IMG/VR virus record: IMGVR_UViG_3300028840_002850
Span: 698 to 64,697 of that record
Length of the DNA stretch: 64,000 nt
Reading direction: 5' to 3' (one strand)
From: a virus
Lineage: Duplodnaviria; Caudoviricetes
Shown here: in pieces, positions 10,271 through 29,559 of the stretch
Position numbering within the stretch: position 1 is the stretch's first letter
How the letters are laid out: each line of letters starts with the position of its first letter
Notes under the pieces: model-generated
What the model saw: the letters and a program-made list of their open reading frames with translations, nothing else
Told to the model about the DNA's origin: nothing
Databases searched by the model: none
Program-made: the position numbers and the translations under genes

Positions 10271-10480
10271 ATGAAATATCGAATTGAAGCAATAGAAAAA
10301 GACGATATTTACACCTTCCTACTCCACCAAAATGGCCCCAAATATTTTAATGTACTCGAAGAAATCTATCGCACCTTGCGAAGCAAATGTAAATATACAG
10401 ACGAAACGGGTTCATGGAAAGAGGCATATCAACTTGTAATTGATATTCTAAACGATGCCAATATTGATCTGTATGAATAG
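10271..10480 (+). CDS. Hypothetical protein
   Basis: 69-aa ORF co-directional with the exonuclease. Confidence 0.55.
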   Translation: MKYRIEAIEKDDIYTFLLHQNGPKYFNVLEEIYRTLRSKCKYTDETGSWKEAYQLVIDILNDANIDLYE

Positions 10481-10665
10481 CGTACACTTTCCTATAAAGT
10501 ACAAATTTCTTGAACAAGAAATTCCTGCATGTACCGGAGAATAACATTTTTACGGCATAAAATGTGTTTTTTTGCCATTTTATGGTACGAATAAGGTGCT
10601 TTTTGTCGCAAAACTTGACAAAATTACCTGCACTTGTTTGTTTATGCAAACATGGTAATTTAAAC

Positions 10666-10697
10666 AAAAAGGGAGCCCGCAACTTACACGGGCCCCC
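10666..10697 (-). terminator. Rho-independent terminator ending the leftward operon
   Basis: Minus strand GGGGGCCCG-loop-CGGGCTCCC followed by TTTTT. Confidence 0.65.
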
Positions 10698-10748
10698 ATC
10701 TTATCAACATCCTTTATTTCCTCTATTTTATATAATACCTCCTTTCTG

Positions 10749-11351
10749 TTACGGATTAATGGTTACAACAGGCAGGGAGTTCGGATTAAAGGCAGTTATC
10801 CATCCGTGCTCAATGGCGAATCGGGCATCGAGTTCGGCTTCCGTCATCCCCGCCTGTTCTTGTAGTTGCAACCACAACGGCAACATTGCCTGGATGAGTT
10901 CAATAAGTACCAAGAGAGCTTCGCTTATAGCTTGAGATTCATATTGTTCTATTAATCCCGCATCAACCATTGCCTTAACTACAGTCTCTTTAGAAGGCGC
11001 TATTGCCTGCCTGGTATAAAGGTATCGCTTGACTTCCATAAGAGCAAGGTTGGCCGCATCAATCATTGCGATATTAATGGTTCCGCCAGCAGCAATAGTC
11101 TCAGAAATTGCCCTGATGGGCATATAAGCCGCCACAAGAGCATCCCTTCGTTTATTAAGCATTTCCTTGTGAGTTTCTTGGTCTGCCCATGCTGCTTCAA
11201 TTATGAATTCGTTTACAAGGCGATGATAAGACCCGTCAAAAAACGTAGCCTTGCCCTTCGGTGTTTCTGGATATTGAAGGGTAGCGCATCCAATAATGTT
11301 GACGAAAAAGCTCAATACTACTAAGTAAATTACGTATTTCTTGATTTTCAT
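10749..11351 (-). CDS. Putative lipoprotein
   Basis: MKIKKY, hydrophobic stretch, IIGC lipobox-like site. Confidence 0.6.
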   Translation of the reverse strand: MKIKKYVIYLVVLSFFVNIIGCATLQYPETPKGKATFFDGSYHRLVNEFIIEAAWADQETHKEMLNKRRDALVAAYMPIRAISETIAAGGTINIAMIDAANLALMEVKRYLYTRQAIAPSKETVVKAMVDAGLIEQYESQAISEALLVLIELIQAMLPLWLQLQEQAGMTEAELDARFAIEHGWITAFNPNSLPVVTINP

Positions 11352-11364
11352 TCAATACCTCCTG

Positions 11365-12318
11365 TTAAAAGTTAATATTAAAGTACGATTCTATATGTTT
11401 CCACCGATTGATAACAGTTGTGTTATCCGATCCTGCAAATAGTAAACCTACTATTTTATCGCCAGATACCACGGCACTTCCACTATCCCCCGGTTGGCTC
11501 ATGGCACCGGCTAATAGCTGATCTGTAAATACCGCTATTTTGCCATCGTATTGCACTTGAACTACTGCGTTGATCTGCTGGATTTCTCCCGTTGTAAAAC
11601 CACTCGTCCGTCCTGTTTTCTGAACAGGCATTGTAATAAAAGGGTCTTCTATAACACCGTGAATTTTGCCGATTTCAAGAATAGTGTCGTCAATATATTT
11701 TTCGTCTGCCACGTCTGCGATAGCCAAATCTACAAGATTGGCATCAGCATGGGGGACGATGGCAGACATTCTTGTTTTCCTTCCAAAGAACTTTGAGAGC
11801 TTATTGAAGGAAAACGCCACCGCCTTTGAAAATGGGCAATCGCTATCTTCCCCTAAAAAATGGATAGGAACATAATCTAACAAATACCCAATGCAATCTT
11901 GAGGATATTCGCCCCCGTCGTGGTCGCCTGGTTGAAGAATTGCATCTCCTATGTCAGCCTCATTACTGTTTGCTAGAACGTGGTTGTTAGATAACATTAC
12001 CTTTTTGTCACCCAGGCTTACCCAGCATCCGAGAGTTCCCGCCGAAATGTCAACATGGCCGACAGACACACCACCGGGAGCAGGACGATAGCGGTCTGTA
12101 AAAATATCTAATGCTTTAATCTCTCCTGTTTCCACCACGTCAACACTGGATGATAATACGTGCTGGGGTGATATAAAATGTTTCGGCAGTTTCTTGCGAA
12201 CACCCACGACCGTACATTTTTCGTCAGTCGTTTTGTTCTTCCTGGTTCGTAATCCGTCCCCTACTGACCAAACGTGGGGGTTTTTGTAGATAAGGTCCAA
12301 TTTTTCTTTTGTATCCAT
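11365..12318 (-). CDS. Trypsin-like (Nal1-type) serine protease
   Basis: AGTLGC, LSNNHV (His), VDLA (Asp), KTGRTSGFTTG and PGDSGS (Ser). Confidence 0.85.
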   Translation of the reverse strand: MDTKEKLDLIYKNPHVWSVGDGLRTRKNKTTDEKCTVVGVRKKLPKHFISPQHVLSSSVDVVETGEIKALDIFTDRYRPAPGGVSVGHVDISAGTLGCWVSLGDKKVMLSNNHVLANSNEADIGDAILQPGDHDGGEYPQDCIGYLLDYVPIHFLGEDSDCPFSKAVAFSFNKLSKFFGRKTRMSAIVPHADANLVDLAIADVADEKYIDDTILEIGKIHGVIEDPFITMPVQKTGRTSGFTTGEIQQINAVVQVQYDGKIAVFTDQLLAGAMSQPGDSGSAVVSGDKIVGLLFAGSDNTTVINRWKHIESYFNINF

Positions 12319-12574
12319 TTAATCTCCTTTAGTAAGTTTAAACCACCACCCATTTGGACAACATTACCAAACGGTAACAATATACAATGATTTGTATGAA
12401 TCTATACAAAGCTTTTGTATGGTTTTACTGAACGGTATTATTGTAATTCTGATCTGTAATCAGGTGTTTTTATGCGAAAGGGCATGGTGTTTGGGGGCGA
12501 CCCAAACTTAGCTTTTTTAGCGTGTATCCGGCGAGGACCATGCCCTGTGGCCACCTTATTGTAGATAGGTAGCT

Positions 12575-12988
12575 TTACGCTACTGACCTTTTTTCTCTAT
12601 GTAATTTCTTATGACACTTCTGGCACAGCCACTCCACCTCAAGGGGCTTGTTGTAGTCTTCATGGTGTGCGTGGATTATGCCACCACTGCCACATTGAGA
12701 ACAAATTCCCGGCTTCTTTATCCTGCCTGTTCGAGTTTTGCTGCTGACAGCCACAAATGCCGCTGCTCGCTTCTTGTGTCTTTCGCGGTAATTGCGAACC
12801 CGTTCAATTTGCCGATCAACATTTTTGCTATAATATTGTCGTGTCATTCTCAGGTTGTTTTCGTGGTCTTCATAATATTTCTCACTTCGACAATCACGAC
12901 ACATATAATGTAATCCACCAGGGTTCCCACGATCCTTGTGATATGCACTTTCCGGTTTTTCTTTTTTACATCTGCAACAAGTTTTCAT
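12575..12988 (-). CDS. HNH-like zinc-binding endonuclease
   Basis: CCRC...CRDC N-terminus; CSQC...HAHHEDY...WLCQKCH. Confidence 0.7.
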   Translation of the reverse strand: MKTCCRCKKEKPESAYHKDRGNPGGLHYMCRDCRSEKYYEDHENNLRMTRQYYSKNVDRQIERVRNYRERHKKRAAAFVAVSSKTRTGRIKKPGICSQCGSGGIIHAHHEDYNKPLEVEWLCQKCHKKLHREKRSVA

Positions 12989-13010
12989 TTTCTGATCTAC
13001 TATCTGTTAA

Positions 13011-13139
13011 TCAGTATATTCCAATTGCTCTAAAAATATCTTTCCAGATGTCCATCAAAACACATCCGAATCCATAGCAAACGGGAATTGCAACAAATAA
13101 ACTTAAAAATATAACAAGCACTACTATCATTTTTTCCAT
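13011..13139 (-). CDS. Small membrane protein (42 aa)
   Basis: MEKMIVVLVIFLSLFVAIPVCY...; lies between two boundary motifs. Confidence 0.5.
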   Translation of the reverse strand: MEKMIVVLVIFLSLFVAIPVCYGFGCVLMDIWKDIFRAIGIY

Positions 13140-13164
13140 GGTTCTGGTTTCCTATCAGTTGTGT

Positions 13165-13413
13165 CTAATTAAAAAGAGATTGAACAAAAGCAAATATTAA
13201 TAGACAAATCATTGCATCGCTAAGTGTGATTTCCGATATAGGCTTTTCCCACATTGACCAATCACCTACCCCGCTAAGAGCCCATAAAAAGATACAAGCA
13301 ACCACAACCACAACCACAATAAGTACTGCTATTATTTTGTATTCTTTAAAAAAGTTCCACATTTTTTTCATAAAATCCTCCAAATCTAATTCTATTCTCA
13401 TAACCCCCTCCAT
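13165..13413 (-). CDS. Small membrane protein
   Basis: Two hydrophobic segments; bounded by motifs. Confidence 0.55.
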   Translation of the reverse strand: MEGVMRIELDLEDFMKKMWNFFKEYKIIAVLIVVVVVVACIFLWALSGVGDWSMWEKPISEITLSDAMICLLIFAFVQSLFN

Positions 13414-13421
13414 CGGCCTTA

Positions 13422-13583
13422 CTACTGGTCAGTTGATTCTGTCTCGTATGTAATTATAAATTTGTTCTTAGTTAAAGCATGGGCCTCTTCATAGCTGTAG
13501 GTTTTGCCCGTTACGGTTTGATGAGTAACATCTATAAATTTGACCCCATTAATCCAAACAATTGTATCCTCATAAGGTGCCAT
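13422..13583 (-). CDS. Hypothetical protein (53 aa)
   Basis: MAPYEDTIVWING...STDQ with RBS AAGGA; stop lies inside the boundary motif. Confidence 0.55.
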   Translation of the reverse strand: MAPYEDTIVWINGVKFIDVTHQTVTGKTYSYEEAHALTKNKFIITYETESTDQ

Positions 13584-13623
13584 TCTTATCCTTTCTAATC
13601 TGACTTCCCATCAGAAGGCTATA

Positions 13624-13647
13624 GTTCGCTATTCTCGAATAGCGAAC
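13624..13647. repeat. Palindrome GTTCGCTATTC-TC-GAATAGCGAAC (related copy at 15893-15915)
   Basis: Perfect 11-bp arms; second copy TTCGCTATT-TGAG-AATAGCGAA. Confidence 0.8.
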
Positions 13648-13652
13648 CTGTA

Positions 13653-13877
13653 CTACTCAGTTGGTTTTGATAATTGTCGCGTTATTTCTTCATTGGTTGC
13701 TCTACGGTTGCGTTCACATTCTTCGCCATGCCCCCATCCATGAATGAACGCTTCTTTATATAGATATTCGATGGTTGATACTCCAAATTGGGCTTTGTCA
13801 GGCAAACTAAATAATAACCCTTCAATAAAAGACCAATGATTTTCAGCCATCCGTTTTATTCCTTCGTAGTCTATCAT
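13653..13877 (-). CDS. Hypothetical protein
   Basis: 74-aa ORF with YKEAFIHGWGHG; bounded by motifs. Confidence 0.6.
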   Translation of the reverse strand: MIDYEGIKRMAENHWSFIEGLLFSLPDKAQFGVSTIEYLYKEAFIHGWGHGEECERNRRATNEEITRQLSKPTE

Positions 13878-13905
13878 TCATTTTTCCTTCCGTTCTGATT
13901 ACTAC

Positions 13906-14694
13906 TCAGTTGCTCCAAAGTTTGAGTTGTTTGCGTTCATTTTCGATTCTTTTGGCTGCTATCTCGCAATACTTTTCTTCTATTTCTATGCCTATCCAAC
14001 GTCTATTTAAGCGCTCACAGGACAGGGGTGTCGTTCCCGAACCGGAAAAAGGGTCAAGCACGACATCATCTGGATAACAAAATAGCAAGATACATCTTCG
14101 GGGCAACTCGACAGGAAATTTAGTCGGGTGACCATTCTTTTTTGTGTCCGGTGAGAAATTCCAGACCTCAAGAGTAAATTCAAGAAACTCTTTTTTTTCC
14201 ATTTCTGGCTCAAATTTTTTGGGTTCTTTTTTAAAGTCTGGTTTATAAAATTTACCCCCCTTTCCAGCTATTATAATGTATTCATGTAAACCCCTTAATC
14301 CTGGGGCAGACGGACTTCGCCAACTCCCCCAGGCGGTATTTGACATACAATTTTGCTTATTCCAAACGACAGTACCCATTAGAAACCATTTTTCCCTGAT
14401 TCGGGCGGTTATATCCGAATGTATCGGAAAATATGGGTTTCTGCCCAAATCGGCCACATTAATGCACATTCTTCGCCCATCTTTTGCTAAAGAAAAACAA
14501 CAATCCCACACGCAATCGAGCCAATCCAAATAATCATTATATGCCTTAGAATCCTTATAGGAGTCACCATACTCTTTGCCACAATTATACGGTGGTGACG
14601 TAACTATCAAATCAACCGACCCAAGCTCTGGCATAATCTCAAGACAATCCCCATGATAGAGTTTGCCCAATTCTGTTTCATAATATGGTTTCAA
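13906..14694 (-). CDS. DNA methyltransferase, N4-C/N6-A beta class
   Basis: GDCLE, TSPPY (motif IV) before HPTKFP and LDPFSGSGTT (motif I). Confidence 0.9.
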   Translation of the reverse strand: MKPYYETELGKLYHGDCLEIMPELGSVDLIVTSPPYNCGKEYGDSYKDSKAYNDYLDWLDCVWDCCFSLAKDGRRMCINVADLGRNPYFPIHSDITARIREKWFLMGTVVWNKQNCMSNTAWGSWRSPSAPGLRGLHEYIIIAGKGGKFYKPDFKKEPKKFEPEMEKKEFLEFTLEVWNFSPDTKKNGHPTKFPVELPRRCILLFCYPDDVVLDPFSGSGTTPLSCERLNRRWIGIEIEEKYCEIAAKRIENERKQLKLWSN

Positions 14695-14700
14695 ATCTAC

Positions 14701-14886
14701 TTATCCCATATCAGAAGGTTCTTTTTCAACTTGTTGGAATAAATCTAATAGGTGCTTCAACCCTTTAATAAATGCTTCTTCCCAAGTTGTACTTGGACCT
14801 TCGCCACGATTTTCTTCATGCCATTTAATTTCTTGTTTCGTTATTTCGATTGCCCTTTTCATACTCTCTCCAAACCTATCGGACAT
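14701..14886 (-). CDS. Hypothetical protein
   Basis: 61-aa ORF; start and stop both inside boundary motifs. Confidence 0.55.
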   Translation of the reverse strand: MSDRFGESMKRAIEITKQEIKWHEENRGEGPSTTWEEAFIKGLKHLLDLFQQVEKEPSDMG

Positions 14887-15044
14887 CAGGTGGCTAGTAA
14901 TTTTGCGAGGCTATCCAGAAAATTTGTTGCTCCGAATAACGCCAAAATTATCCACCAAAAGCGAGTAAGTTTAGCATCGGAAATAAAACAAAGAACCATC
15001 ATAAAGGTAAAGATTGAATGAATAACTATTCCGACGATTGCCAT
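14886..15044 (-). CDS. Small membrane protein (52 aa)
   Basis: MAIVGIVIHSIFTFMMVLCF...; RBS GGAGG; TGA stop is part of CACCTGA. Confidence 0.55.
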   Translation of the reverse strand: MAIVGIVIHSIFTFMMVLCFISDAKLTRFWWIILALFGATNFLDSLAKLLAT

Positions 15045-15055
15045 TGTTCCTCCTT

Positions 15056-15226
15056 CTACTGGTCAGTTGTCCATAGGCCAAATTCTCTGCCCACTCGATC
15101 AACTACCTTATTGATGCTTGCCATGCGAACAATCTGTTTGTCGATATTCATTTGGAGTGTGATCCAAATTTCTTCGTCCAGTATTTGTTTCAATCTGTCG
15201 GCTGTTAGTTTCTTTTTTCTTCCCAT
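15056..15226 (-). CDS. Hypothetical protein (56 aa)
   Basis: MGRKKKLTADRLKQIL...WTTDQ; bounded by motifs. Confidence 0.55.
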   Translation of the reverse strand: MGRKKKLTADRLKQILDEEIWITLQMNIDKQIVRMASINKVVDRVGREFGLWTTDQ

Positions 15227-15231
15227 CGGCC

Positions 15232-15456
15232 CTACCTCCCATCAGTTGCTTCTTTTCGACATTGTTCCAGAAATTCAGGGTTTACCTTTTTGTCTGGTAC
15301 CTTTATTAGTTTTAGCTGGTAGACTTTTTCGCATTTGGGACAAAACATGGCTTTTGAAAACCAACCATTTGAAACCATCTTGAGATTGTTTCCACACTTA
15401 CAATATGCGTGACTAATGAACGGGGCGGCGTTTATTTCAAAATCATCAAATTTCAT
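15232..15456 (-). CDS. Zn-ribbon small protein
   Basis: CKCG...CPKC. Confidence 0.6.
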   Translation of the reverse strand: MKFDDFEINAAPFISHAYCKCGNNLKMVSNGWFSKAMFCPKCEKVYQLKLIKVPDKKVNPEFLEQCRKEATDGR

Positions 15457-15471
15457 AGTTCTGACTTCCCA

Positions 15472-15654
15472 TCAGTTGCCCCAGAGTTTTAATTGTCCCT
15501 TCTCAGCTTTTTCTAAGGGGCATTTATTTAAACGAACAATCCATTCCTTGGCCTTTTTGCAAAAAACCCCTTCGCGCACTGTAACCTGGCCCGTTGGTTT
15601 CAAACAGGAATACTGGCAAGGAGCATAATTTATTTTACTGCACGGATATTCCAT
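15472..15654 (-). CDS. Cys-rich small protein
   Basis: 60 aa, ends QLKLWGN; TGA lies within CAACTGA. Confidence 0.55.
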   Translation of the reverse strand: MEYPCSKINYAPCQYSCLKPTGQVTVREGVFCKKAKEWIVRLNKCPLEKAEKGQLKLWGN

Positions 15655-15660
15655 CTAAGC

Positions 15661-15861
15661 TTACCATCGGTCGGTTGATCTTAATAATTTTGTATGGCGT
15701 TCAAATTCTGATTTAATCGCATCATATAATTCGATTTTTGTATGGAATTCTGGTCCCTCTACCAAAAGACATGATATTGATTCAAAGAAGTCTTTATATA
15801 TTTCCGGCTTGCCCTTGGCCCCCTTATATCCATGCCCATAATCATTTAGCATATCATTCAT
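15661..15861 (-). CDS. Hypothetical protein
   Basis: 66-aa ORF with RBS GGAGGG. Confidence 0.55.
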   Translation of the reverse strand: MNDMLNDYGHGYKGAKGKPEIYKDFFESISCLLVEGPEFHTKIELYDAIKSEFERHTKLLRSTDRW

Positions 15862-15926
15862 GGTCTATACCCTCCCCGCCGTTTGGCTGTAATTCGCTAT
15901 TTGAGAATAGCGAACCCCATTATTAC

Positions 15927-16112
15927 TCATCGGTAGTTATTTTTCATTGCGTTTAATATTAAATCGTGAAGCAAACTTATCCAACCGTCTTTTCGATTAT
16001 GACCCCTAATCATACCACTGGCGATTCTTCTTTCATTAACAAAAACACCATAGGTATAATTGGCAGATTCATTAGTACCCGTACTATCATTATGTATTTT
16101 GATGATAAGCGT
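15927..16112 (-). CDS. Hypothetical protein with apparent ACG start (61 aa)
   Basis: Frame (T/M)LIIKIHNDSTGTNESANYTYGVFVN...NYR fills the interval between two motifs; no in-frame ATG at the N-terminus. Confidence 0.45.
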   Translation of the reverse strand, partial: TLIIKIHNDSTGTNESANYTYGVFVNERRIASGMIRGHNRKDGWISLLHDLILNAMKNNYR

Positions 16113-16119
16113 TTTATTA

Positions 16120-16305
16120 CTACTCAGATGTTCGCAATGAGGTCAAAATAGACTTCATCGATTTGGTAATTGTTTCTCGCCGTATCTTTTCGCAACGGTC
16201 ACACCAATATTTTGATTTCGGTCGCAGATTACCGCCGGCATTGTTCTCACATTTATTTTCGTACTGTGCGTATCCTATACATTTCATGGATATACCTATT
16301 CCCAA
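16120..16305 (-). CDS. Cys-rich small protein
   Basis: CIG...CEN...CDRC. Confidence 0.55.
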   Translation of the reverse strand: MGIGISMKCIGYAQYENKCENNAGGNLRPKSKYWCDRCEKIRRETITKSMKSILTSLRTSE

Positions 16306-16313
16306 TCAGTTGC

Positions 16314-17129
16314 TCAGTCTTTGCTGTAAAAATTACCCTTCCCAATATACCAATTATTAAGGAAGGTTTTGAAATCAATCGGTTCGGCGTACTTCAAAGA
16401 TACGCGCCAATTATTGTTCATGTGGAATTTCCGAATAGATGGTATCGTCCCTGTTAAGTAAAATTTTTTCATAGCACGTTCAAACGTGGCATAAATTTTA
16501 GGCCAGCGGTCTTTGTGAACTTGAAGTTGCCACTTAGCAAATTTTGGTTTGGGGTTACAAATAAACGGGCACACCACGCAACCAATCCGGTTAAAACCCT
16601 CATCGTAAAGCGAAGAATAGGGCAGATTGTGGCGCTCGATGTACTCCCATATTTCCCATTCGTTCCAGTAGAATATTGGTTTATAAATCGTATCGCCATT
16701 TTTATAGGCATCAATTTGAGGGCGCTTTCCCCTTCGGCCTTCTTCTGCCCTGAGCCCCATAAGCCTGTGTTTATATGGCACATCAGCGGTTGGGTCTTTT
16801 TTGAGGAAATCACAGCACCAGCGGGTGCGCTTAGTCGGAAAACCCCTGATTTGTAATTCTTGATAGAATGACTGTTTAGGTTTCTTGATAATAACATCAG
16901 GGTAAAACCGCTTAATGTGCTTAACAATCTCTGGTGGATCAATCCCTGTTGCTGAATAATAGTATCGACATTCAACCCCCGATTTTTCGCATAAATCATA
17001 GAGTACGGCTGAATCTTTGCCACCAGACACGCCAACAACCCAAGGGGCGTCTTCGGGTTTATGTCTAATGATAAATTCAAGGGCTTCTTCTTCCTTCGTT
17101 TTTCCTGATATGGCAATTTGTTGTGCAAT
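16314..17129 (-). CDS. PAPS reductase family (PP-loop) protein
   Basis: VGVSGGKDS, RWCCDFLKK, GLRAEE, PIFYW and RIGCVVCP. The frame extends upstream of 17030 to ATT at 17129. Confidence 0.85.
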   Translation of the reverse strand: MAQQIAISGKTKEEEALEFIIRHKPEDAPWVVGVSGGKDSAVLYDLCEKSGVECRYYYSATGIDPPEIVKHIKRFYPDVIIKKPKQSFYQELQIRGFPTKRTRWCCDFLKKDPTADVPYKHRLMGLRAEEGRRGKRPQIDAYKNGDTIYKPIFYWNEWEIWEYIERHNLPYSSLYDEGFNRIGCVVCPFICNPKPKFAKWQLQVHKDRWPKIYATFERAMKKFYLTGTIPSIRKFHMNNNWRVSLKYAEPIDFKTFLNNWYIGKGNFYSKD

Positions 17130-17145
17130 ATCTACTTACTCCCGA

Positions 17146-17304
17146 TCAGGCGTTCTTAGATTTTTCAAGCATTTTCAAGCCGGCGTGCAGGCTGCCCGAT
17201 AAATTATTTACAGCCTGCGTCCACCTCACGGCATCCTCACTCTTTTCGCAAGATTGAATTTTCTGTAATAACACCTCAATGGATTTCCTTATTGATTCTT
17301 TCAT
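17146..17304 (-). CDS. Hypothetical protein (52 aa)
   Basis: MKESIRKSIEVLLQKIQ...; RBS AAGGAG; stop within CGCCTGA. Confidence 0.55.
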   Translation of the reverse strand: MKESIRKSIEVLLQKIQSCEKSEDAVRWTQAVNNLSGSLHAGLKMLEKSKNA

Positions 17305-17737
17305 GTTTTTTCTCCTTGTTTAAAAGTTTAAATAAAATTATATTCCGGGTAGCCTGGTGGATCACCAGCATCCTCAATAAATCTTTTCTGGCAGTCTTCA
17401 TCTTGGCAATAATAATGATGACCGAACCTTCCATAGATACCATTACATTCTGAGGTGCTTTTTTCTTCACCACATATCCAACATTTTACTTTTACCTTCA
17501 TAAATCACCTGACTGTAAGCAAGGCGGTCACGGAGTACCTTTCGGCATATGTCCCGTTTAGTTTTGTATGCACAACCACCTATTTGAACACAAGTTGCTT
17601 ATTTTCGTACTGTTGCCCACTTGGACAACAATAGCTTTTGAACTCTTGACAATTTATTGTTATTGTCTACAATGAAATCATAACGTGAATTATCACCGAA
17701 CGGCTTGGATACCGTAACCGATAATTTATCAACGACC

Positions 17738-17967
17738 CTTAACAATTTTTTAACACTCATAATTTGCTATTAATAATTTCGGGTAGTTAGCTTCGGGAGC
17801 GGGGATTTCAAGTCTCCCCTCTCGCACCATTCTATTCAAAAAAATTAACAAGACAATAAACCACCAACACACTGAAATGTAATATTAATTGAAACAATAT
17901 TTGAACTACAATATATGTTTTTAGCCAGTCCATTTTACCTCCGAAATCTTTAACACATCTTTAACAG
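17738..17967 (+). other. attP: 3' end of tRNA-Leu (core 17807-17829) flanked by TTAACA arm-type repeats
   Basis: TTCAAGTCTCCCCTCTCGCACCA is a T-loop, T-stem, acceptor strand, A discriminator and CCA. Tandem TTAACA pairs at about 17739-17756 and 17950-17966. Non-coding region close to the integrase. Confidence 0.75.
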
Positions 17968-17999
17968 GTCTGTGACCCACCATTTCCCAATCAGTGGGT

Positions 18000-18215
18000 T
18001 TATATCGTTACATGATCCGGGTATTTTGTTGCAAGGGGTCGATAATTGTCTGATGCTGTTTTTCCACATTTGGGGCATTTCATCGCAGGAATAACATTTT
18101 GGTGAAAATTGGCATCATCATAACCAGAACCCTCTCTTTCAAAACTACAATGTTCACATTCGTAAACTGCTATAAAATCTCTTCTCATTTGTGATTTTAT
18201 TTCTTTGATTTTCAT
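18000..18215 (-). CDS. Zn-ribbon small protein
   Basis: CEHC...CPKC; RBS GGAGG. Confidence 0.65.
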   Translation of the reverse strand: MKIKEIKSQMRRDFIAVYECEHCSFEREGSGYDDANFHQNVIPAMKCPKCGKTASDNYRPLATKYPDHVTI

Positions 18216-18225
18216 AAAATCCTCC

Positions 18226-19305
18226 TTACTCCCGATCAGCCGCCTTCTTCATTGGCGCAACCTCGCCCCGGGTTTGCGCATAAATAGCCCTCAGTTCATC
18301 TCCCTGGATTTCCAAATATCGGTCAAAGGCTGTTTGTGTCCGATGGCCAGTAGCCCGTTTTATTTCTTCTGGTGTTAGTCCTTGTCTGAGGGCGATAGCA
18401 CTGGAATGTCGGGTTCCACCATACAGGTCAACATCTTCGATTCGTAGATTTGAACATGCTTTTTTCCACCACTTGTATAAATAACCCTTACCAAAAGGCG
18501 ACCCTGGTGCATTTCCGCCTCGACCTTTAATATGTCTGAAGAAACAAAGTGTCGGAAATCCTTTAGGTTGTTGTCGTAAAAGCTTAACATCGTCCGGCAA
18601 GAGATAGATGTATTTGGGTTCTCCTGTTTTTGATTCATTTATTAAAATCCTTCCGTTGTGGAGGTCGATGTCTCTTTCTCTGATACCGATAAGCTCACCC
18701 GGTCTGATATTGATGTAGGTGGAAAGAAAAAGGACGGCCACATATATCCGTGGGTTGAATGCCGTGATCCGTCTGATTTCCTCCAAAATACGGCACTGAT
18801 CTTCTTTGGTGATAATTTTTCGATACGGGCTTGACGCCTTGACGATTGGGAATCTTGGAATTTGCTCATGCGTTATTTCTCCTGATTGGTAGAGCCAGCG
18901 ATAAAACATCTTGACAGTATCTCGTATGTCCTTGATATATTTAGACGCATAGCCCATTTCAAAAAGATTGGCGACAAGATGCTCCACGTCACAAAATCCA
19001 ATTGTTTTAACATTGCGATTTCCCCAAGAGTTAGTTGCTTTGTCCAATCGTTGTTCATATTTTTTAACTCCTTTCAAAAGCCTCTTTGAATGTAAAAATT
19101 TCTCAACCAGATTGGCAAAGCCCAACGGGTTGTCTTTGCGATAATCCCGGCCATCCAAAGTGCCCTCGTCGTGTTTAAATCTGAGACCTGTTAGAAATCG
19201 TTCTGCCTGCTCATAATGTTTAAACCGTTGCCTGATGTCCTTTTCAGACCCCATTGGAAACCAAACTAAATAGCCATGCTTTGTTTGATAAATATTCCCT
19301 TTCAT
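18226..19305 (-). CDS. int: Tyrosine recombinase/integrase
   Basis: IRPGEL (R), SKTG (K), YGGTRH (HxxR variant), TGH and catalytic RY; RBS GGAGGG before ATG 19305. Confidence 0.9.
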   Translation of the reverse strand: MKGNIYQTKHGYLVWFPMGSEKDIRQRFKHYEQAERFLTGLRFKHDEGTLDGRDYRKDNPLGFANLVEKFLHSKRLLKGVKKYEQRLDKATNSWGNRNVKTIGFCDVEHLVANLFEMGYASKYIKDIRDTVKMFYRWLYQSGEITHEQIPRFPIVKASSPYRKIITKEDQCRILEEIRRITAFNPRIYVAVLFLSTYINIRPGELIGIRERDIDLHNGRILINESKTGEPKYIYLLPDDVKLLRQQPKGFPTLCFFRHIKGRGGNAPGSPFGKGYLYKWWKKACSNLRIEDVDLYGGTRHSSAIALRQGLTPEEIKRATGHRTQTAFDRYLEIQGDELRAIYAQTRGEVAPMKKAADRE

Positions 19306-19379
19306 AGTTAGCCCTCCCTCCATGTATTTTGGAGATTGGGTACTATATGCTATGGCATTTTGCAACATTTTCGATATTC

Positions 19380-19571
19380 TTATCCGTGATCAGGTGCTTC
19401 TTTTTTCGCTTTTTCTAATTCGGTTAAGTGTAGTTCGATATTTACATATTTTCGATAATCAGTGGTATCTTCCACTTTTTTTATTTGAACTAAAAAATCT
19501 CCACCTAATGATTCGGCAAGAATCATATTTACCCTGCTTGCTATTTCTAAGGCTGTCATGGTTTTCTCCAA
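19380..19571 (-). CDS. Hypothetical protein
   Basis: 63-aa ORF bounded by motifs. Confidence 0.5.
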   Translation of the reverse strand: MEKTMTALEIASRVNMILAESLGGDFLVQIKKVEDTTDYRKYVNIELHLTELEKAKKEAPDHG

Positions 19572-19586
19572 TCTTCTATTACGCTA

Positions 19587-19760
19587 TCAGGCGGTTGTTA
19601 AATTAAATTTTCCCGAATATTTTAAATTTGGTCGTTCATAAAAATATTTTCTTTTTCGATAACATTCCCTACAAATAGTTGGGTACGCCATGTAAAAAAG
19701 ACGGTTTATGTTTCTGCTATCTTCGATACCGCATTTGTGGCATTTAAATTCTGCTCTCAT
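19587..19760 (-). CDS. Zn-finger small protein (57 aa)
   Basis: MRAEFKCHKC...CRECY; stop within CGCCTGA. Confidence 0.55.
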   Translation of the reverse strand: MRAEFKCHKCGIEDSRNINRLFYMAYPTICRECYRKRKYFYERPNLKYSGKFNLTTA

Positions 19761-19797
19761 TAGCCTACCTATTAGATGTCAGTTGCTTCCGCTCATG

Positions 19798-20253
19798 TTA
19801 TTTAAATGCTTTTACAATATCAGGAATAACTTCTTCCCATTCAACCCGATAGTCTTTGATAATTGTAATGCGGGAGTATTCAATCACAACCGTATTGAAT
19901 TTAAACCAGCCATCTTCGTTTTTTAGGTTGATTAGATATTCATACAGACCCAAACCGGCAGCAGTGATTTTATTCTTATCGGCTTTATTTACCCTTCGGC
20001 TACGGGTTTTAGGATCTTCAATTACATTCCCGTATTTGGCATACCTTTCGGTAGCCAAGGGACTATCTGGAAGTAAAATCATAATGTTTTCGGTTTTATC
20101 CTGCCCCAAGAGATATTTTCCGCCTTCAAACTCTACCCATCCAGGTGTTTCAGCGGGTTTCGGTTCAACAACAGCATGAGCTAAAAACGGTACAACACAA
20201 AAAGCTAAAATTAGTGCGATTTTTTTCATTGGTTTTCCTTTCTTAATGTACAA
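19798..20253 (-). CDS. Secreted hypothetical protein
   Basis: MKKIALILAFCVVPFLAHA signal peptide. Confidence 0.6.
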   Translation of the reverse strand: MYIKKGKPMKKIALILAFCVVPFLAHAVVEPKPAETPGWVEFEGGKYLLGQDKTENIMILLPDSPLATERYAKYGNVIEDPKTRSRRVNKADKNKITAAGLGLYEYLINLKNEDGWFKFNTVVIEYSRITIIKDYRVEWEEVIPDIVKAFK

Positions 20254-20373
20254 GTAGATAGAGTTTAATAAACCCTGGTATTATTATATACATCATAAGT
20301 AGAGCAAAAGCTGCACCCATTATAAGACCCATTGAAAGACCTATTGAAAATTTTTCTGTTTCTTTTTCATTCA

Positions 20374-20988
20374 TTACTCAGCCTTTGCTTTCTCCCATTC
20401 CGATTCAATTTCTTCCACTTTCTTCTTGCCGGGTTTGTAAACCAGATTTGCGAATTTACGCAGAATGTATTTAATGGTTAGTTTGGGCATTACGAATTTT
20501 ACGGTGACAACACAGATAAGCATAATGATTAATGTGTTCATTACGGTAAACATGGGTTGATCCTCCTTCTTTTCAAGGTTTAATATTTTTTGTTCTATGG
20601 ATTCAAAATATTCTTTACTCAGTTCCTTGCCATTTAATAATACAATTGGAGCTTCAAGACTTATATATTCTGGTGCTTCTATCGTATCTAGGGCTGGGGC
20701 ATCTGTTCCATCGGAAAATGTTATTGTGCCATCAACGTCCAAGACCAAGTAATCATCTGTTCCAGTAGCAAAATCTATAGTAGTAGTGTCAGCCGAAGTC
20801 GCAATTTCAATAGCTGAATCATCGGTTATACTTGTTGAGCTTCCACTCCCCACGTCTAAAATAACCCATCCGCTATCGTGATACAAAACAAGGTTTTTAG
20901 AATCTCTATTATAAGCCACTTGACCATTATATTCTCCGGGTTCATCGAGCGAATCAATTACTCTGATACCATAACTATTTGAGTCCAT
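20374..20988 (-). CDS. Membrane-anchored protein, paralog A
   Basis: Acidic beta-rich N-terminus; C-terminal about 75 aa (coil, TM, basic tail) near-identical to 21256..21963. Confidence 0.65.
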   Translation of the reverse strand: MDSNSYGIRVIDSLDEPGEYNGQVAYNRDSKNLVLYHDSGWVILDVGSGSSTSITDDSAIEIATSADTTTIDFATGTDDYLVLDVDGTITFSDGTDAPALDTIEAPEYISLEAPIVLLNGKELSKEYFESIEQKILNLEKKEDQPMFTVMNTLIIMLICVVTVKFVMPKLTIKYILRKFANLVYKPGKKKVEEIESEWEKAKAE

Positions 20989-21256
20989 CTATCACATCAT
21001 CAATAGAATAAGCCACAATCGCAATACCACCATTGTTTCTTACCTGAGATAAAAAGATTTCTTGATACTTACTTAATTTGCCGTTAGGCGATTTCACTTC
21101 GATTGCCAGAAAGCGTTTTTTGTATATTCCAATAATATCAGCTATGCCTTTGTATGCTCCCAAACCCTGAAGGGCATGGAAATGAAATACCCCTATTGCC
21201 TTCAGGTATTGCTTAATGGCCTTCTTTAATCTAGTTTCTGGTGTCAGTTTTGGCAT
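20975..21256 (-). CDS. VRR-NUC nuclease (Holliday junction resolvase-like)
   Basis: ETRLKKAI, GIADII, AIEVKS and LSKYQ motifs. Confidence 0.85.
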   Translation of the reverse strand: MPKLTPETRLKKAIKQYLKAIGVFHFHALQGLGAYKGIADIIGIYKKRFLAIEVKSPNGKLSKYQEIFLSQVRNNGGIAIVAYSIDDVIDGLK

Positions 21257-21963
21257 TATTCGGTCTTTGCTTTTTCCCATTCAGTCTCAACTTCTTCAAT
21301 CTTCTTTTTTCCGGGCTTGTAAACCAAATTGGCAAACTTCCGTAGAATGTATTTTATAGTTAGTTTGGGAATTACGAATTTAACAGTGACAACACAAATA
21401 AGCATGATGATTAAAATGTTCGTTGTTGTAAACATGGTTTGATCCTCCCTATTTTCAAGGTTAATGATTCGTTGTTCTATTGATTCAAAATGTTGTTTAT
21501 TATACCTACTGCCACCATCTGACACAGCCACCCAATTATTGCCATTATGTATGCAGATGTTAATTAGTCTACCTCCACCTATTGAACAATCGTGGGGTGT
21601 CAGACCATCTTTTATAATTACAATATCTCCTTCTTTGCCCACAGCCAGGTCCGATATTTTATTTTGTTTAATATTAATCGGGGCAACCCACTCAAAAGTT
21701 CCATCTTCATATGTTAAAATTTGGTCAGGTGAGGGATGGCTAAGAACTAAAAGATCGGTGTCTACCCATTCTTCGCCAGTAGCAGTAACAATCCATTCGG
21801 AGTCGGTTGGTGCACCAATTTCTATATCTACCATTGTGTTATTTTTTAATACAAAACAATCAGTTGAAGAATCAAAAGTAAGAGTAGCGTCTGTAGCTGA
21901 CTCTATTGTGGAATCCGCGTCTATCAGGGTATTGCTAAATATAATCCAGGAATCATCGCCCAT
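21256..21963 (-). CDS. Membrane-anchored protein, paralog B
   Basis: Shares the C-terminal FESIEQ...EWEKAK module with 20374..20988. Confidence 0.65.
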   Translation of the reverse strand: MGDDSWIIFSNTLIDADSTIESATDATLTFDSSTDCFVLKNNTMVDIEIGAPTDSEWIVTATGEEWVDTDLLVLSHPSPDQILTYEDGTFEWVAPINIKQNKISDLAVGKEGDIVIIKDGLTPHDCSIGGGRLINICIHNGNNWVAVSDGGSRYNKQHFESIEQRIINLENREDQTMFTTTNILIIMLICVVTVKFVIPKLTIKYILRKFANLVYKPGKKKIEEVETEWEKAKTE

Positions 21964-22141
21964 CAGGTATTCGGGTATCCTCTCCTATCAAATCCCCACA
22001 TATCGGGCATTTATATAGCCGTATGGGAGGGTCGGGGAATTTTTTTGCTTTCCCGTTATGGTCAAAGTCCCCTTGTTTCAAGGCTCCGGTGGAAGCCTCA
22101 ATTACTATCATGGGCTTTCCGCAACAAAGTCGTGTGGCCAC
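21953..22141 (-). CDS. Zn-ribbon small protein
   Basis: CCGKPM...YKCPICG. Confidence 0.55.
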   Translation of the reverse strand: MATRLCCGKPMIVIEASTGALKQGDFDHNGKAKKFPDPPIRLYKCPICGDLIGEDTRIPDGR

Positions 22142-22455
22142 TATTTCTCGCTTTCCCTAAACAGAAATTCATTTACATATTCCAGACATCTCAAGGGCAG
22201 GGTTTCCCACATGCTACCCCAGAATGTCTGACCGCCTTTCTGGTGTTCCCACGCCTGATGTTCACTCCAAAGTAACGGAACTGCGTAAATGTCAGGAGCT
22301 TTTAAAGATGTTCCCTTTCTTCCAAAGCCCTGATGTGCTGGCACTATCGGATCATCCTTAATCCCGGGCAACCCCGAATATAGCGACCGCTTGGTTCTGA
22401 TGAAGTCCAAGTATTTTTTCGACCGGAAGTTTTTTATTTTGGGATAGGCTGTCAT
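22141..22455 (-). CDS. DUF968/HNH-like protein, degenerate Cys ligands
   Basis: RSKKYLDFIR, AHQG, KAPDIYAVPL...H. Confidence 0.55.
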   Translation of the reverse strand: MTAYPKIKNFRSKKYLDFIRTKRSLYSGLPGIKDDPIVPAHQGFGRKGTSLKAPDIYAVPLLWSEHQAWEHQKGGQTFWGSMWETLPLRCLEYVNEFLFRESEK

Positions 22456-22880
22456 GGATTAGAATTCTCCAAAAGCTTATTGACCGTTACCCCTATCTTT
22501 GCGGCCATAATTTCTAACGCTCGGCTGAAATAGTCACATGCCTTAATATGGCTCAGGTTGCGAAAGGCAATTGAGCGATACTTGAAGTGCATCCGTTTTC
22601 CGTCCCATACCGACTCTTTCATATTGACAAAATTAGTTGCTATCCGGCATTGAAAATCAACCTTCTTTTTTGTGTCCCAATCTTTGTCTTCGCAGTTGTC
22701 AGCAACGGTTTGACAGCAGGCCCAGTATCCGTTAATCTGCCGTAAGCTCCGGGGGCTTTTCACTCCGTAAACCTGAAGCCTTAAAACCTTGTCGGTCGGG
22801 TATTCCCGTATGATATCCTCATCCCCTTGCGAGATGGGTTCGAACCGACCGTGCTTTCTTTGTACGAATACCTCTTGCAT
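22452..22880 (-). CDS. NinB/DUF1367-like recombination protein
   Basis: RSLRQINGYW...SIAF motifs; next to exonuclease and ERF. Confidence 0.5.
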   Translation of the reverse strand: MQEVFVQRKHGRFEPISQGDEDIIREYPTDKVLRLQVYGVKSPRSLRQINGYWACCQTVADNCEDKDWDTKKKVDFQCRIATNFVNMKESVWDGKRMHFKYRSIAFRNLSHIKACDYFSRALEIMAAKIGVTVNKLLENSNP

Positions 22881-23485
22881 TATTTCGCTTTTAGTTCCTG
22901 AATAGTAGCGGCCAGCACATAGCAGAATTTGTCAAGTTCGGCTTCCAGCTTTTTAAGAAATTCCTTGTCGCGTTCAACCCGGAAAATAAACGGCTTTATG
23001 CCGGGATGGTAGCTCACGAAGTCGCACCATTCGCGGCCGGTGATCAAAAGCCCCCCCTGCACTTGGCGGTGATACGCCGCGGGAAGTTTGTCCTTTAACA
23101 GATATTCTACATGGGTTGAGATGATGGGGCACTTGATTTCAATTTGCCCATCCTCACCGATAAGTCCATCTGGTGAATAGCTGTATTTCTTTTGTTCATC
23201 GGGATAACAAAGACCGACCTCTTGAACTTCAACATCATTAATGAGTTCATATAACCCTCTGGCCTCTGGCTCCATTTCAACGCCACGCTCAATAATGGCA
23301 TTCGAATAACCATCAGCCTTTTTTCCGGTAATCGCCTCTCCCGCTAGTTGAAATAGATATTTTTCAGCCTGCTTTGATGGCTTGCCGTCAGAGGTTATGA
23401 TTTTATCGAAGCAACTTGCAGTGGGGATGCCGGCCCTTGCCGCGAACCATTCATTCGAAAGTTGGGGAACATCTAAGGTTATCAT
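22880..23485 (-). CDS. YqaJ/lambda-exonuclease family
   Basis: EWFAARAGIPTAS, RGVEMEPEAR, SPDGL, IEIKCP, QVQ and WCDFVSY. Confidence 0.9.
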   Translation of the reverse strand: MITLDVPQLSNEWFAARAGIPTASCFDKIITSDGKPSKQAEKYLFQLAGEAITGKKADGYSNAIIERGVEMEPEARGLYELINDVEVQEVGLCYPDEQKKYSYSPDGLIGEDGQIEIKCPIISTHVEYLLKDKLPAAYHRQVQGGLLITGREWCDFVSYHPGIKPFIFRVERDKEFLKKLEAELDKFCYVLAATIQELKAK

Positions 23486-24271
23486 TTATTTCCCCTTCCG
23501 CTTGTCTTCTAGCTTCGCTTTAAGCCATGCCATTGCGGTATCGAATTTTTCCGCTGGCAGAAGATCGAGCTTTTCAACCCCACCTAGTTTTAGAAATTTA
23601 TCAAGGTTTGTTTCGGTTTCGTTGATCATATCTACGAGTTGACTTAGCTGCTTTTCGCTGATAACAACCGTTCCCCCGGTTTTTACATCATCATCCATAT
23701 CCTTGCTTGCCAATCCGGTAAGAGCTAAAACCGTGTATCTTTCCAAATAGCTTACAGTTGAGCCAATAGCCTGTATGGGGTTTTTGCTGCCGGAATTGTC
23801 GGGCGATGCGGTTAGGGTGGTTTCTTCGCTGTGCCCCATTACATGAGTAATTTTACACGTTACGCTGATGGTTCCGTTTTCCTGGTGGGTGGTCCAGGCC
23901 GCAGACAATCTATGTTTACTCAGGGCTGCATTAATCTTTTCGGTTACATTGGCAAGGGTGGCGTGACTGTATTCAGTCTGGCCCTTGCCCGTTGGGTATG
24001 ACACCCGCTTGTCCTTGTTGATTTCGGGTGGATTCGCTTTGAAATTCGCCATAGCCTCAACATAGGCTTTTTTGGCTTCATTCGCTTCATACCGCTCCTG
24101 TAACGCCATGAGCTTTTCCAGCTTGTCAAGATCGGCTTTATTAGAGATCGCCATCTGAATTAAGGCCGCTGGTGTGTTCTCGGGTGTGGTTGCCGGTAGG
24201 TTCTCCTCTCCTGAAACCCGGCCCTCGAATTTGACAAGGTCTGTTTCTTGTTGCGTCATAGTGTCCTCCAT
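23486..24271 (-). CDS. erf: ERF-family single-strand annealing protein
   Basis: YSHATL, HVMGHSE and QAIGSTVSYLERY...GL...DDD signature. Confidence 0.9.
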   Translation of the reverse strand: MEDTMTQQETDLVKFEGRVSGEENLPATTPENTPAALIQMAISNKADLDKLEKLMALQERYEANEAKKAYVEAMANFKANPPEINKDKRVSYPTGKGQTEYSHATLANVTEKINAALSKHRLSAAWTTHQENGTISVTCKITHVMGHSEETTLTASPDNSGSKNPIQAIGSTVSYLERYTVLALTGLASKDMDDDVKTGGTVVISEKQLSQLVDMINETETNLDKFLKLGGVEKLDLLPAEKFDTAMAWLKAKLEDKRKGK

Positions 24272-25610: not shown

Positions 25611-25639
25611 TCTCACATGCAGTATCTCAAAAAGTGAGA
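25611..25639 (-). promoter_or_regulatory. Leftward early (PL-like) promoter/operator region
   Basis: Minus-strand TTGACA -35 at 25639-25634 followed by the palindrome ATCTCA-N5-TGAGAT and a further TCTCAC half-site at 25611; exact -10 uncertain. Confidence 0.55.
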
Positions 25640-25719
25640 TGCTTGTCAAGAAAAAATTGCCCTTAGGAAGAAAAAAATTGATTGTGGTTTTCCGCGATCT
25701 ATCTCACGGGGGGGGGGTG

Positions 25720-26210: not shown

Positions 26211-26219
26211 AGCCTTGTT

Positions 26220-26414: not shown

Positions 26415-26425
26415 TCTAAGGGGGG

Positions 26426-29368: not shown

Positions 29369-29388
29369 CGGGAGTTGTTTATTCCAAG

Positions 29389-29559
29389 TCAGGTGTTTTT
29401 CTTTTTGCGATAAATTTTCTTTTTTGGCGTTATAATGTTTGACCGATCTTCCTTAACTTCAACAAATCGGCAAACATGACCATCAGTCCATTTGATAGGT
29501 TCGGGTTTTCTGTTGGAAATAACCTCATGGTTACAATAGGCGCAGACATATGATTTCAT
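29389..29559 (-). CDS. Small Zn-binding basic protein (56 aa)
   Basis: MKSYVCAYC...HVC; RBS GGAG; stop within a CACCTGA motif copy. Confidence 0.55.
   Translation of the reverse strand: MKSYVCAYCNHEVISNRKPEPIKWTDGHVCRFVEVKEDRSNIITPKKKIYRKKKNT

Follow-up and report, generated by a model that had tools for sequence, protein, structure and literature searches.

A stop-bearing word of about 21 nt recurs at gene junctions in the accessory region of a temperate phage of Desulfobacterales

Short repeated elements at gene boundaries have been described in several groups of phages. In T4-type phages the element known as PeSL, of about 100 bp, combines a sigma-70 promoter with a terminator stem-loop and leaves its cassettes transcriptionally isolated, and mini-circles have been demonstrated for these elements (PMC2839356, PMC4122927). 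For some phages a model of targeted homologous recombination has been put forward, in which short conserved sequences at gene boundaries direct the exchange of modules (PMC3233612). The SAS and ESAS repeats of Cluster K mycobacteriophages, with their AGGAG core, are described as lying 3–7 bp upstream of start codons (PMC3203893), and the stoperators of Cluster A mycobacteriophages as also serving as operators in promoters and being spread over the genome (PMC9283540). Here we describe a word of about 21 nt, or about 35 nt including its flanks, that recurs at nearly every gene junction in an array of small genes in the viral record IMGVR_UViG_3300028840_002850, of which we analysed a window of 64,000 nt (bases 698-64697 of the 64,697-bp record).

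By analogy, the word would work most like the PeSL cassettes and the boundary sequences of the targeted-exchange model. Like the PeSL, it is a repeated junction element in a hyperplastic, ORFan-rich region, where it flanks single small genes, bounds differences between relatives and invites a proposal of linker homology. Lacking both promoter and stem-loop, it is not itself a PeSL; it also differs in its length, in overlapping stop codons in two frames, and in its apparent position within one long operon of a temperate phage that encodes an Erf protein, and of the two it is the PeSL for which mini-circles have been shown. With the boundary model it shares short conserved gene-boundary sequences proposed to target homologous exchange, but its density (21 of 23 junctions) is far higher, and the word itself carries the stops.

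Copies of the word were anchored on CTGA and are named here by the position of the anchor, which falls within the interval of the copy (copy 15475, for example, occupies 15461..15481). The curated array contains 22 copies, every one on the minus strand, with the consensus AA.CaaCTGAt.gG.aaTaAG. C is found at position -3 in 21 of the 22, a purine at +13 in all 22 and G at +14 in 19, and in the upstream flank A stands at -6 in 14 copies and at -5 in 16; the conservation of the CTGA core itself is partly an artefact of ascertainment, because the copies were anchored on it. Of the 23 gene junctions that lie from the 151-aa gene (19798-20253) to the trypsin-like gene (11365-12318), a stretch spanning 12.4-19.8 kb, 21 have at least one copy; the two without any are 17599/17501 and 17328/17304. 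A preliminary description of this DNA had reported about 21 same-orientation copies at nearly every junction, bounding single unrelated genes, and this is what we find: the flanked genes are mostly unrelated and small, and the word is more conserved than they are. The six sites it quoted (13895-13909, 15461-15475, 13418-13432, 14875-14889, 17135-17149 and 19768-19782) are all present on the minus strand.

Several measures separate the array from the rest of the window. In an unbiased search for repeats in 12300-19900, the junction word was the dominant repeat family (D1-D5, D8, D10, D11 and D14). Leave-one-out scores against a position weight matrix (PWM) were at least 9.8 for 20 of the 22 copies and about 5.5 for the other two. 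A scan of the window, of the kind that had been suggested as a check, leaves the rest of the phage almost free of the word: of 24 matches that score 12 or more, 21 are minus-strand matches within 12400-19800, and 40 mononucleotide shuffles gave 2.5 matches on average and never more than 7. Of the 28 occurrences of the simpler string CAMCTGA in the window, 12 fall on the minus strand of 12460-19785, and the other ~57 kb has 16, counting both strands. The only strong match outside the array is at 29392 (minus strand, score 18.3), with weaker ones at 7899 (minus, 13.5) and 17509 (plus, 13.1). No match of 12 or more was found in the conserved early block at 19.8-26.1 kb, and none of 8 or more between 22243 and 29391, a range that includes the CI/Cro divergent promoter region (24-27 kb); nor does the late operon hold a strong copy in its own sense, the plus strand. 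The orientation of the word follows transcription throughout, with all 22 array copies and copy 29392 lying on the coding strand. An exact 15-mer of the word matched at least 102 single-copy stretches, which we took as chance and did not use.

The anatomy of the word is that of a gene end. In 17 of the 23 copies (the array and copy 29392) the upstream gene's stop codon is inside the word, so that the earlier statement that the word often supplies the stop is correct, as are the peptide ends TDQ, TDGR, ADRE, PDHG and WSN that accompanied it. Eight of these 17 genes stop in the TGA frame and nine in the xCT-GAx frame, the latter at a TAG or TAA lying 5, 8 or 11 nt past the anchor, while none is read in the third frame of the word, which is free of stops; the chance of 0 in 17 is (2/3)^17 = 0.001. 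The word thus holds successive stops, a TGA and then, 4-10 nt further on, a TAG or TAA. Four copies have the stop 7-18 nt upstream instead. Past the anchor, a start codon is reached after 19-32 nt in 16 of the 23 copies, usually with a purine-rich ribosome-binding stretch, but it is 72-88 nt away in four, and three copies (29392, 17994 and 12463) have none downstream. The word is therefore tied to gene ends rather than to gene starts. What is conserved is DNA or RNA rather than peptide, since an identical 15 nt, CTGATCGGGAGTAAG, is read as a gene end ...NA-stop at copy 17149 and as the integrase end ...ADRE-stop at copy 18239.

We found no fold in the word: segments from -10 to +30 of the 23 copies shared no structure, and their z-scores relative to shuffles averaged -0.17. 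The block has no excess of promoter-like sites (44, against 38.7 +/- 6.4 in shuffles), none of which stands at a junction, and no excess of terminator-like sites (18 against 15.5). On reading the copies by eye, we dropped three further candidates for want of a consistent match, namely a CcrM or Dam methylation target, arm sites for the integrase, and base pairing to the 3' end of 16S rRNA that would go further than the Shine-Dalgarno interaction. A stop-to-stop frame of 71 codons at 15927-16142 on the minus strand, which looks protein-like and whose 5' end has no canonical start nearby, is in the third, stop-free frame behind copy 16127.

Our preferred explanation, to which we assign a probability of about 0.5, is that the word would be a stop/restart intercistronic linker and would also offer a short patch of homology at which genes are shuffled, the phage's own Erf protein and exonuclease being plausible agents. 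As a portable linker in the variable accessory part of a long leftward early operon, it would terminate a small gene placed before it, by means of the two-frame stops, and allow the next gene to be restarted on the same polycistronic mRNA. Recombination at the word would then insert, delete or swap single genes. Both roles, in translation and in recombination, we infer from anatomy and comparison, and the word is held to act as a homology patch because it recurs at junctions and in related phages. The likely agent would be the Erf protein together with the YqaJ-like exonuclease, or host RecA, rather than a site-specific enzyme of the integron or dif kind. Just upstream of the array, on the minus strand, the phage encodes an Erf-family single-strand annealing protein (23486..24271; PF04404, 2e-16), its YqaJ-like exonuclease partner (22880..23485; PF09588, 1.3e-22) and a VRR-NUC nuclease (20975..21280). 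On identical and 78%-identical substrates, an Erf/Exo pair from phage D3 matched lambda Red in the efficiency of recombination, and such recombinases are given a leading role on short and diverged sequences by the authors of that study (PMC3945230).

The PAPS-reductase frame (16314-17132, minus strand) is open directly after the TAA of the word at 17149 and is conserved with a relative, L134, from its second residue, and its first ATG, GTG or TTG is a GTG at 17030 that falls inside the Pfam domain. The missing start fits a crossover at the word that removed the original start codon; the alternative is an ATT start near 17126.

The copies themselves appear to be kin. The spacer of 7 nt had been described as variable, but it does not vary freely: five pairs of copies have identical spacers (15475/13614, 18239/17149, 15066/13432, 17994/16309 and 16127/13909), and four further pairs match at 6 of 7 positions. 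Some pairs of copies are homologous over as much as 31-39 nt, with 66-77% identity (D1, D4, D10 and D11), a stretch spanning the last codons of one gene together with the ribosome-binding site and start of the next, and the methyltransferase and an unrelated 60-aa protein end alike in QLKLW(S/G)N. Identical spacers and homology of this length point to copies related by descent or exchange. The types of spacer, designated F1 to F5, also follow a repeated order along the array: F2 F4 F2 F4, then F5, F5-like, a hairpin and, further on, F1, F1-like and F3, with a second series of F5, F5-like, hairpin, F1 and F3 later along. The hairpins are two 32-nt palindromic elements (13617..13648 and 15885..15916; 84% identical, D9) with a near-perfect palindrome of 9 bp, one in each series. 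Both directly follow motif copies of F5 type, and only these 2 of the 22 array copies are so followed. As no run of T follows either element, by eye, they are probably not intrinsic terminators. The repeated order could reflect unequal crossing-over between two versions of the array, or an old segmental duplication.

The second of these possibilities can be carried further, to a word that has no function beyond keeping a stop and a ribosome-binding site, spread by serial tandem or segmental duplication of junction plus gene, the genes having since diverged or decayed. The repeated order of spacers, with a hairpin in both F5...F1 stretches, is what such a history would leave, and a paralogous pair of neighbours does lie just upstream of the array on the minus strand (20374-20988 and 21256-21963, 78% identical over 85 aa). 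Within the array itself, though, no paralogues are detectable among the genes at E<=1e-4, the conserved AA.C before the stop is required neither for the stop nor for a Shine-Dalgarno sequence, and in relatives the word family stands beside unrelated genes, with one pair of junctions bracketing three different contents (see below). We regard duplication of this kind as distinctly improbable as the whole explanation.

To compare relatives, 14 of the many homologues of the integrase were aligned, giving 29 viral and 80 metagenome loci, and the word was scanned over 111 loci with relatives of the integrase or terminase (1.06 Mb), where the background is 0.03 matches of PWM >=12 per kb per strand. 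The terminase search contributed just two distant loci, at 52% and 47% identity, and scans of viral contigs with the 151-aa protein and with the trypsin-like protein returned no relative. A dense array of the exact word was found in none of the integrase-relative loci, and in the full records behind loci L002 and L105 a count of CTGA-N7-TMRG gave 8 and 0 matches and no array. What the PWM and direct reading did reveal, and only they, is a diverged family of words. In the two closest long loci, same-strand matches of 12 or more number five in L134 (integrase 69% identical), four of them within the 2.3 kb upstream of the integrase, and four in L105 (integrase 64% identical; L175 is the same contig), all within about 2.4 kb of the integrase gene. 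Read directly, junctions in the relatives give AGCAACTGAT..., AGCAACTAAT..., CCAACTGAT..., AGCAGATAATCAG...TAG and similar words, in which a first stop of TGA or TAA is followed by a second, and genes end there in differing frames. The small genes of the relatives are not homologous to those of the window; the proteins that do match are the integrase, the PAPS reductase (in L134 and others), the trypsin-like protein (L105 and L135), the methyltransferase (distantly, at 24-37%) and a fragment of a 53-aa open reading frame (L136).

Between L134 and L105 the DNA of the integrase and of an upstream block is shared, with 2.7 kb (L134) or 3.9 kb (L105) in between. That interval contains only two islands of shared DNA, one of 24 nt at a junction (96% identical) and one of 50 nt over a junction and gene start (78%). 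At the first junction considered, J1, a 23-nt word AA[C/A]TAATTTCAAAT[C/T]AGGTGCTTT is invariant at 21 of 23 positions in all three loci (L134, L135 and L105); the second, J2, reads CAACTGATTCAGGAT in L134 and L135, and its 5' half has diverged in L105. The interval from J1 to J2 is occupied in L134 by a 74-aa gene and in L135 by a 59-aa one unrelated to it (no BLASTP match at E<=10); in L105 it is just 46 nt. The stretch from the shared 224-aa gene to the integrase likewise holds ~1.9 kb of small genes in L105 and ~0.44 kb in L135. Gene gain and loss in relatives had been predicted to break at the motif, and here, once, it does so at the resolution that distant relatives allow, the base-level breakpoints being unmappable. 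A search with the exact J1 word returned the L105 contig again and no other. A second family of linkers, GTGATAAAACTTTTGGRGG...ATG, is found downstream of the integrase (11139-11164 and 12485-12508 in L134, 11032-11057 in L105), which suggests that conserved stop/restart linkers may be a habit of this phage group. L134 also contains the word GTCCATCGAGGCTGGCG 7-10 times and an internally repetitive open reading frame of 231 aa at about 3363-4058.

Several points weigh against the linker that doubles as a homology patch. No recombinant joint at a pair of motifs has been observed directly. The comparison of relatives provides one clean three-state example only, the relatives are distant (integrases 63-69% identical) with breakpoints that cannot be mapped to the base, and J1 resembles the word of the window in architecture only (stop-N7-TNAG-Shine-Dalgarno-ATG), the copy in L105 alone passing the PWM. 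Exact identity between copies extends over 12-16 nt, which is short even for annealing proteins. The repeated order of spacers (F2 F4 F2 F4; F5..F1..F3 twice) could come from old segmental duplications, the conservation of AA.C (-6, -5 and -3) in unrelated coding ends could mean a binding site for protein or RNA, and modules with ends at gene boundaries are also held to arise by selection after random illegitimate recombination (PMC3233612).

On the first of these points, no joint at a motif pair was present in 9000-27000 among the assembled contigs of three DNA runs; as contigs drop rare variants, this is no evidence that such joints are absent. The contig joints that were seen (14021/14608, 16685/16933 and 14249/15685) either fall within the genes for the methyltransferase or PAPS reductase or have one side 20 letters long, and probably come from other organisms. 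In run X3 a single record at depth 3, which may be chimeric, joins 25249 to 12951 with 11 letters between, and would delete the whole early block and the array. Runs X1 and X2, which may be the source sample, contain a second contig (depth ~12-14 against ~22) with at least 8 differences, all within the 60-aa gene at 15503-15622 between copies 15674 and 15475. One cassette may be present in the same sample as a diverged allele, or the second contig may be a k-mer bubble from a co-occurring strain.

If AA.C is indeed a binding site, the word could be regulatory, a target for a phage or host protein or RNA that controls elongation, RNA processing or translation at each accessory gene, with gene turnover incidental. 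Its single orientation with transcription (22 of 22) would be expected of such a site, as would the conservation of positions outside the stop and Shine-Dalgarno sequence (C at -3, A at -6 and -5) in coding ends read in two frames, and the word family is kept in relatives in which the genes differ. Many of the small proteins of the array appear by eye to be zinc ribbons, which could bind nucleic acid. Precedents are available in mycobacteriophages. Stoperators, which had been offered as the alternative in the preliminary description, are likewise short asymmetric sites of temperate phages, present in more than 20 copies in short intergenic spaces and oriented with transcription (PMC9283540). 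Yet the word is missing from just those places where stoperators would be expected, with no copy of PWM >=8 in the CI/Cro region and no same-sense copy in the late operon, leaving the stoperator version weak. The repressor here is a 128-aa HTH_3 protein. SAS repeats, as reported, are similarly short repeats of one orientation in the non-structural half of the genome, with a core like a Shine-Dalgarno sequence, sometimes an upstream stop, and varied gene families beside them (PMC3203893). In contrast to SAS at 3-7 nt from a start, the word is anchored on the stop, its start is 19-32 nt off or absent altogether, and its best-conserved part, CaaCTGA, does not resemble a Shine-Dalgarno sequence. 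Neither is there a conserved RNA fold, and the pairs of identical spacers speak for descent, not for a degenerate site selected independently at each copy. On balance we think a regulatory site unlikely.

The explanation originally advanced was a dedicated system of site-specific cassette capture, in which a recombinase would cut and rejoin within CTGA-N7-TNAG. Integrons do so at attC, whose imperfect palindrome, tens of bases long, folds in single-stranded form, and Xer recombinases at dif or pdif, in which two inverted arms of ~11 bp surround a spacer of 6 bp. The array does resemble an integron in its promoterless single genes of one orientation, each followed at its 3' end by an element like a recombination site, in its upstream promoter and in the tyrosine recombinase nearby, which here is encoded inside the array (18226..19305, minus strand, 359 aa). 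The CTGA core is invariant, the 5' halves and spacers assort as a mosaic, and like copies flank single genes, as insertion into a site would yield: 15475/15245 and 13909/13660 are of the same or nearly the same type (6 of 7 spacer positions), and 13014/12463 surround the gene for the HNH-type endonuclease (by eye). Candidate enzymes would be the integrase acting on secondary sites, a host Xer-like enzyme, the HNH-type endonuclease or a small zinc-ribbon protein.

Against such a system, the CTGA/TCAG inverted repeat that had been described as the arms is only 4 bp long; 4 of the 22 copies have it at the 7-nt spacing and one has it with a longer spacer, most copies having TAAG or TAGG in place of the second arm; this is far from the symmetry of dif, and no attC-type palindrome or fold accompanies it. 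In NCBIfam the best model for the integrase is XerA/integron-integrase, at 55.9 bits against a cut-off of 220; XerC gives 24.9 against 335 and XerD 22.9 against 330, and its matches include no model specific to integron integrases. The proteins scanned yielded no recombinase of another family. Homology between copies (31-39 nt) often continues well past a core site, as homologous exchange predicts. The integrase also has a core site of its own, at 17807-17829, with no evident resemblance to the word, unlike what a lambda-type core would require. We therefore have very little confidence in a dedicated machine, which, if it existed, would amount to integron-like gene capture in temperate phages of sulfate reducers on a 21-nt site that bears stops. 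Thus the observation that began this work stands, and so do the cassette boundaries, but not a system of site-specific recombination.

The integrase is a generic phage integrase, and the core site just mentioned is that of its own attP at a tRNA. Over its 23 nt the attP core (17807..17829, plus strand) is the same as the 3' end of the Desulfobacterales tRNA-Leu(TAG). It is exactly matched in at least 120 genome stretches and coincides with the end of a tRNA gene in all five host loci checked; in all 121 matches the identity ends exactly at the 5' edge, and it runs 0-4 nt longer at the 3' side. Among the 80 matches listed, nearly all are from Desulfobacterales or Thermodesulfobacteriota, the four exceptions being from Bacteroidales, Hyphomicrobiales, Patescibacteria and a metagenome-assembled genome labelled 'Proteobacteria'. 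The core thereby names both the host group and the integration site, and since it equals the 3' end of a Desulfobacterales tRNA-Leu, we take this to be a temperate phage of Desulfobacterales, with an ordinary integrase/attP module in the middle of its array. The window has no tRNA gene, nor is the word overrepresented around the tRNA-Leu of the hosts, where no 8-kb locus has more than 3 matches on a strand. In one host contig (L217) the exact core is present twice, at 6981-7003 and 7447-7469, the second 466 bp downstream of the tRNA-Leu and without a tRNA; this second core may be the leftover of an excised or decayed element. Inside the attP region, the top sigma-70 match of a 16.5-kb scan (17646-17673, plus strand; TTGACA-16-TACAAT, 11/12) is directed toward the core and, in a lysogen, would read out into host DNA.

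The individual copies, all on the minus strand, are taken here in the order of transcription. The first (19768..19788) reads AAGCAACTGAcatctaaTAGG, has a leave-one-out score of 18.7, and is preceded by a stop 18 nt before its anchor and followed by an ATG at +22; at the second (19576..19596) the TGA of the word is itself the stop of a 57-aa gene, and an ATG follows at +31. The copy at 19379..19399 ends its gene (...PDHG) at the TAA of the second arm, is separated by 88 nt from the ATG of the integrase, and is homologous over 33 nt to copy 12463 (D10). The integrase in turn ends (...ADRE) at the TAA of the copy at 18225..18245, which has the spacer of copy 17149. After the 71-aa gene, the copy at 17980..18000 has the spacer of copy 16309 and, lying at the attP region, no following gene start. 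That 71-aa gene (18000-18215, minus strand; phrog_14808) encodes a zinc-ribbon protein that is 59-71% identical in phages of Streptococcus, Yersinia and Acinetobacter and detectable by blastn, and is a very widely travelled small gene. The copy at 17135..17155 supplies the TGA that stops a 52-aa gene, and the PAPS-reductase frame begins after its TAA with no ATG, GTG or TTG.

Further along, the copy at 16295..16315 has the top score (leave-one-out 25.1), and that at 16113..16133 has a stop TAG within a spacer identical to that of copy 13909. Two degenerate copies with a CCGA core come next, one (15919..15939) followed by the hairpin at 15885-15916 and the other (15660..15680) with a stop at the TAA of the second arm and an ATG at +20. 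The copy at 15461..15481, reading CTGATGGGAAGTCAG over 15461-15475, holds the TGA stop of ...LKLWGN, has the spacer and arm of copy 13614 and is homologous over 39 nt to copy 13909 (D4). Genes end in ...TDGR at 15231..15251, which shows 31 nt of homology with copy 13432 (D11), and in ...TDQ at 15052..15072, which has the spacer of copy 13432; at 14875..14895 the TGA is the stop. The methyltransferase is bounded by the copy at 14700..14720, where a gene ends in ...SDMG and its own TTG start follows at +20, and by the copy at 13895..13915 (CTGAGTAGTAATCAG over 13895-13909), at whose TGA it ends (...LKLWSN). A weak copy (13646..13666, leave-one-out 5.7) leads into the hairpin at 13617-13648, directly after which stands the copy at 13600..13620, with an ATG at +31. 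A gene ends in ...TDQ at 13418..13438, and the copy at 13144..13164 has a stop 9 nt upstream and an ATG at +19. The weak copy at 12992..13020 (leave-one-out 5.3), whose spacer is lengthened, precedes the HNH-type endonuclease gene (12575..12988, minus strand; phrog_2340, 6e-30), and the last array copy (12449..12469) follows that gene and has AAAAACACCTGA in common with copy 29392.

Copy 29392 (29378..29398, minus strand), the one copy outside the array, provides with its TGA the end of the last gene of a three-gene islet, and no gene follows it. The islet (29389-30060, minus strand) runs against the rightward operon and comprises a TTGACA-17-TATATT promoter, a 58-aa gene of HTH_17 type (excisionase-like), two small genes and the motif copy, followed by a hairpin and T-run common to it and the convergent gene (promoter and hairpin by eye). 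Its arrangement is moron-like.

As to the phage as a whole, the first 100 bases of the record recur from base 64,553, 145 bases before its end, and the genome is therefore circularly closed or terminally redundant, at about 64.55 kb. The plus strand encodes the terminase, portal and major head protein. A long early block occupies the minus strand, from a CI-like helix-turn-helix repressor (25720-26106, 128 aa, HTH_3 domain), opposite which lies a Cro-like gene (26220-26414), down to the hairpin at 10697-10671, the strongest terminator-like hairpin on the minus strand. A match to a PL-like promoter (25621..25649, minus strand) just downstream of the CI-like gene would be the start of the long leftward operon that includes the array, and the hairpin its end. 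Along this block the order is Erf, YqaJ, VRR-NUC, the motif array, and then the trypsin-like protein and a 200-aa protein. The genes of the conserved early block at 19.8-26.1 kb mostly abut or overlap, and the G+C content is 0.395 in the variable block against 0.475 in the core. From 19798 to 12438 every array gene is on the minus strand; besides the integrase and endonuclease, the region encodes an N6/N4 DNA methyltransferase (13906-14694), a PAPS-reductase-family protein (16314-17126) and ~20 small proteins, 18 of the 20 scanned having no PHROG match at E<1e-5. An Rfam search of 10-27 kb returned nothing at E<=1.

How phages swap small accessory genes, many of them probably for defence or counter-defence, without wrecking the neighbours is an old open question, for which two models have been offered: targeted exchange at conserved boundaries, and random illegitimate recombination followed by selection. 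The array described here is an unusually dense and simple case, in which the targeted-linker model becomes directly testable. A linker of the kind we favour would carry the PeSL idea beyond lytic phages of T4 type and into the temperate phages of an environmental phylum. For annotation it offers a rule, namely that in such arrays the word marks the ends of genes, even where their starts are non-canonical.

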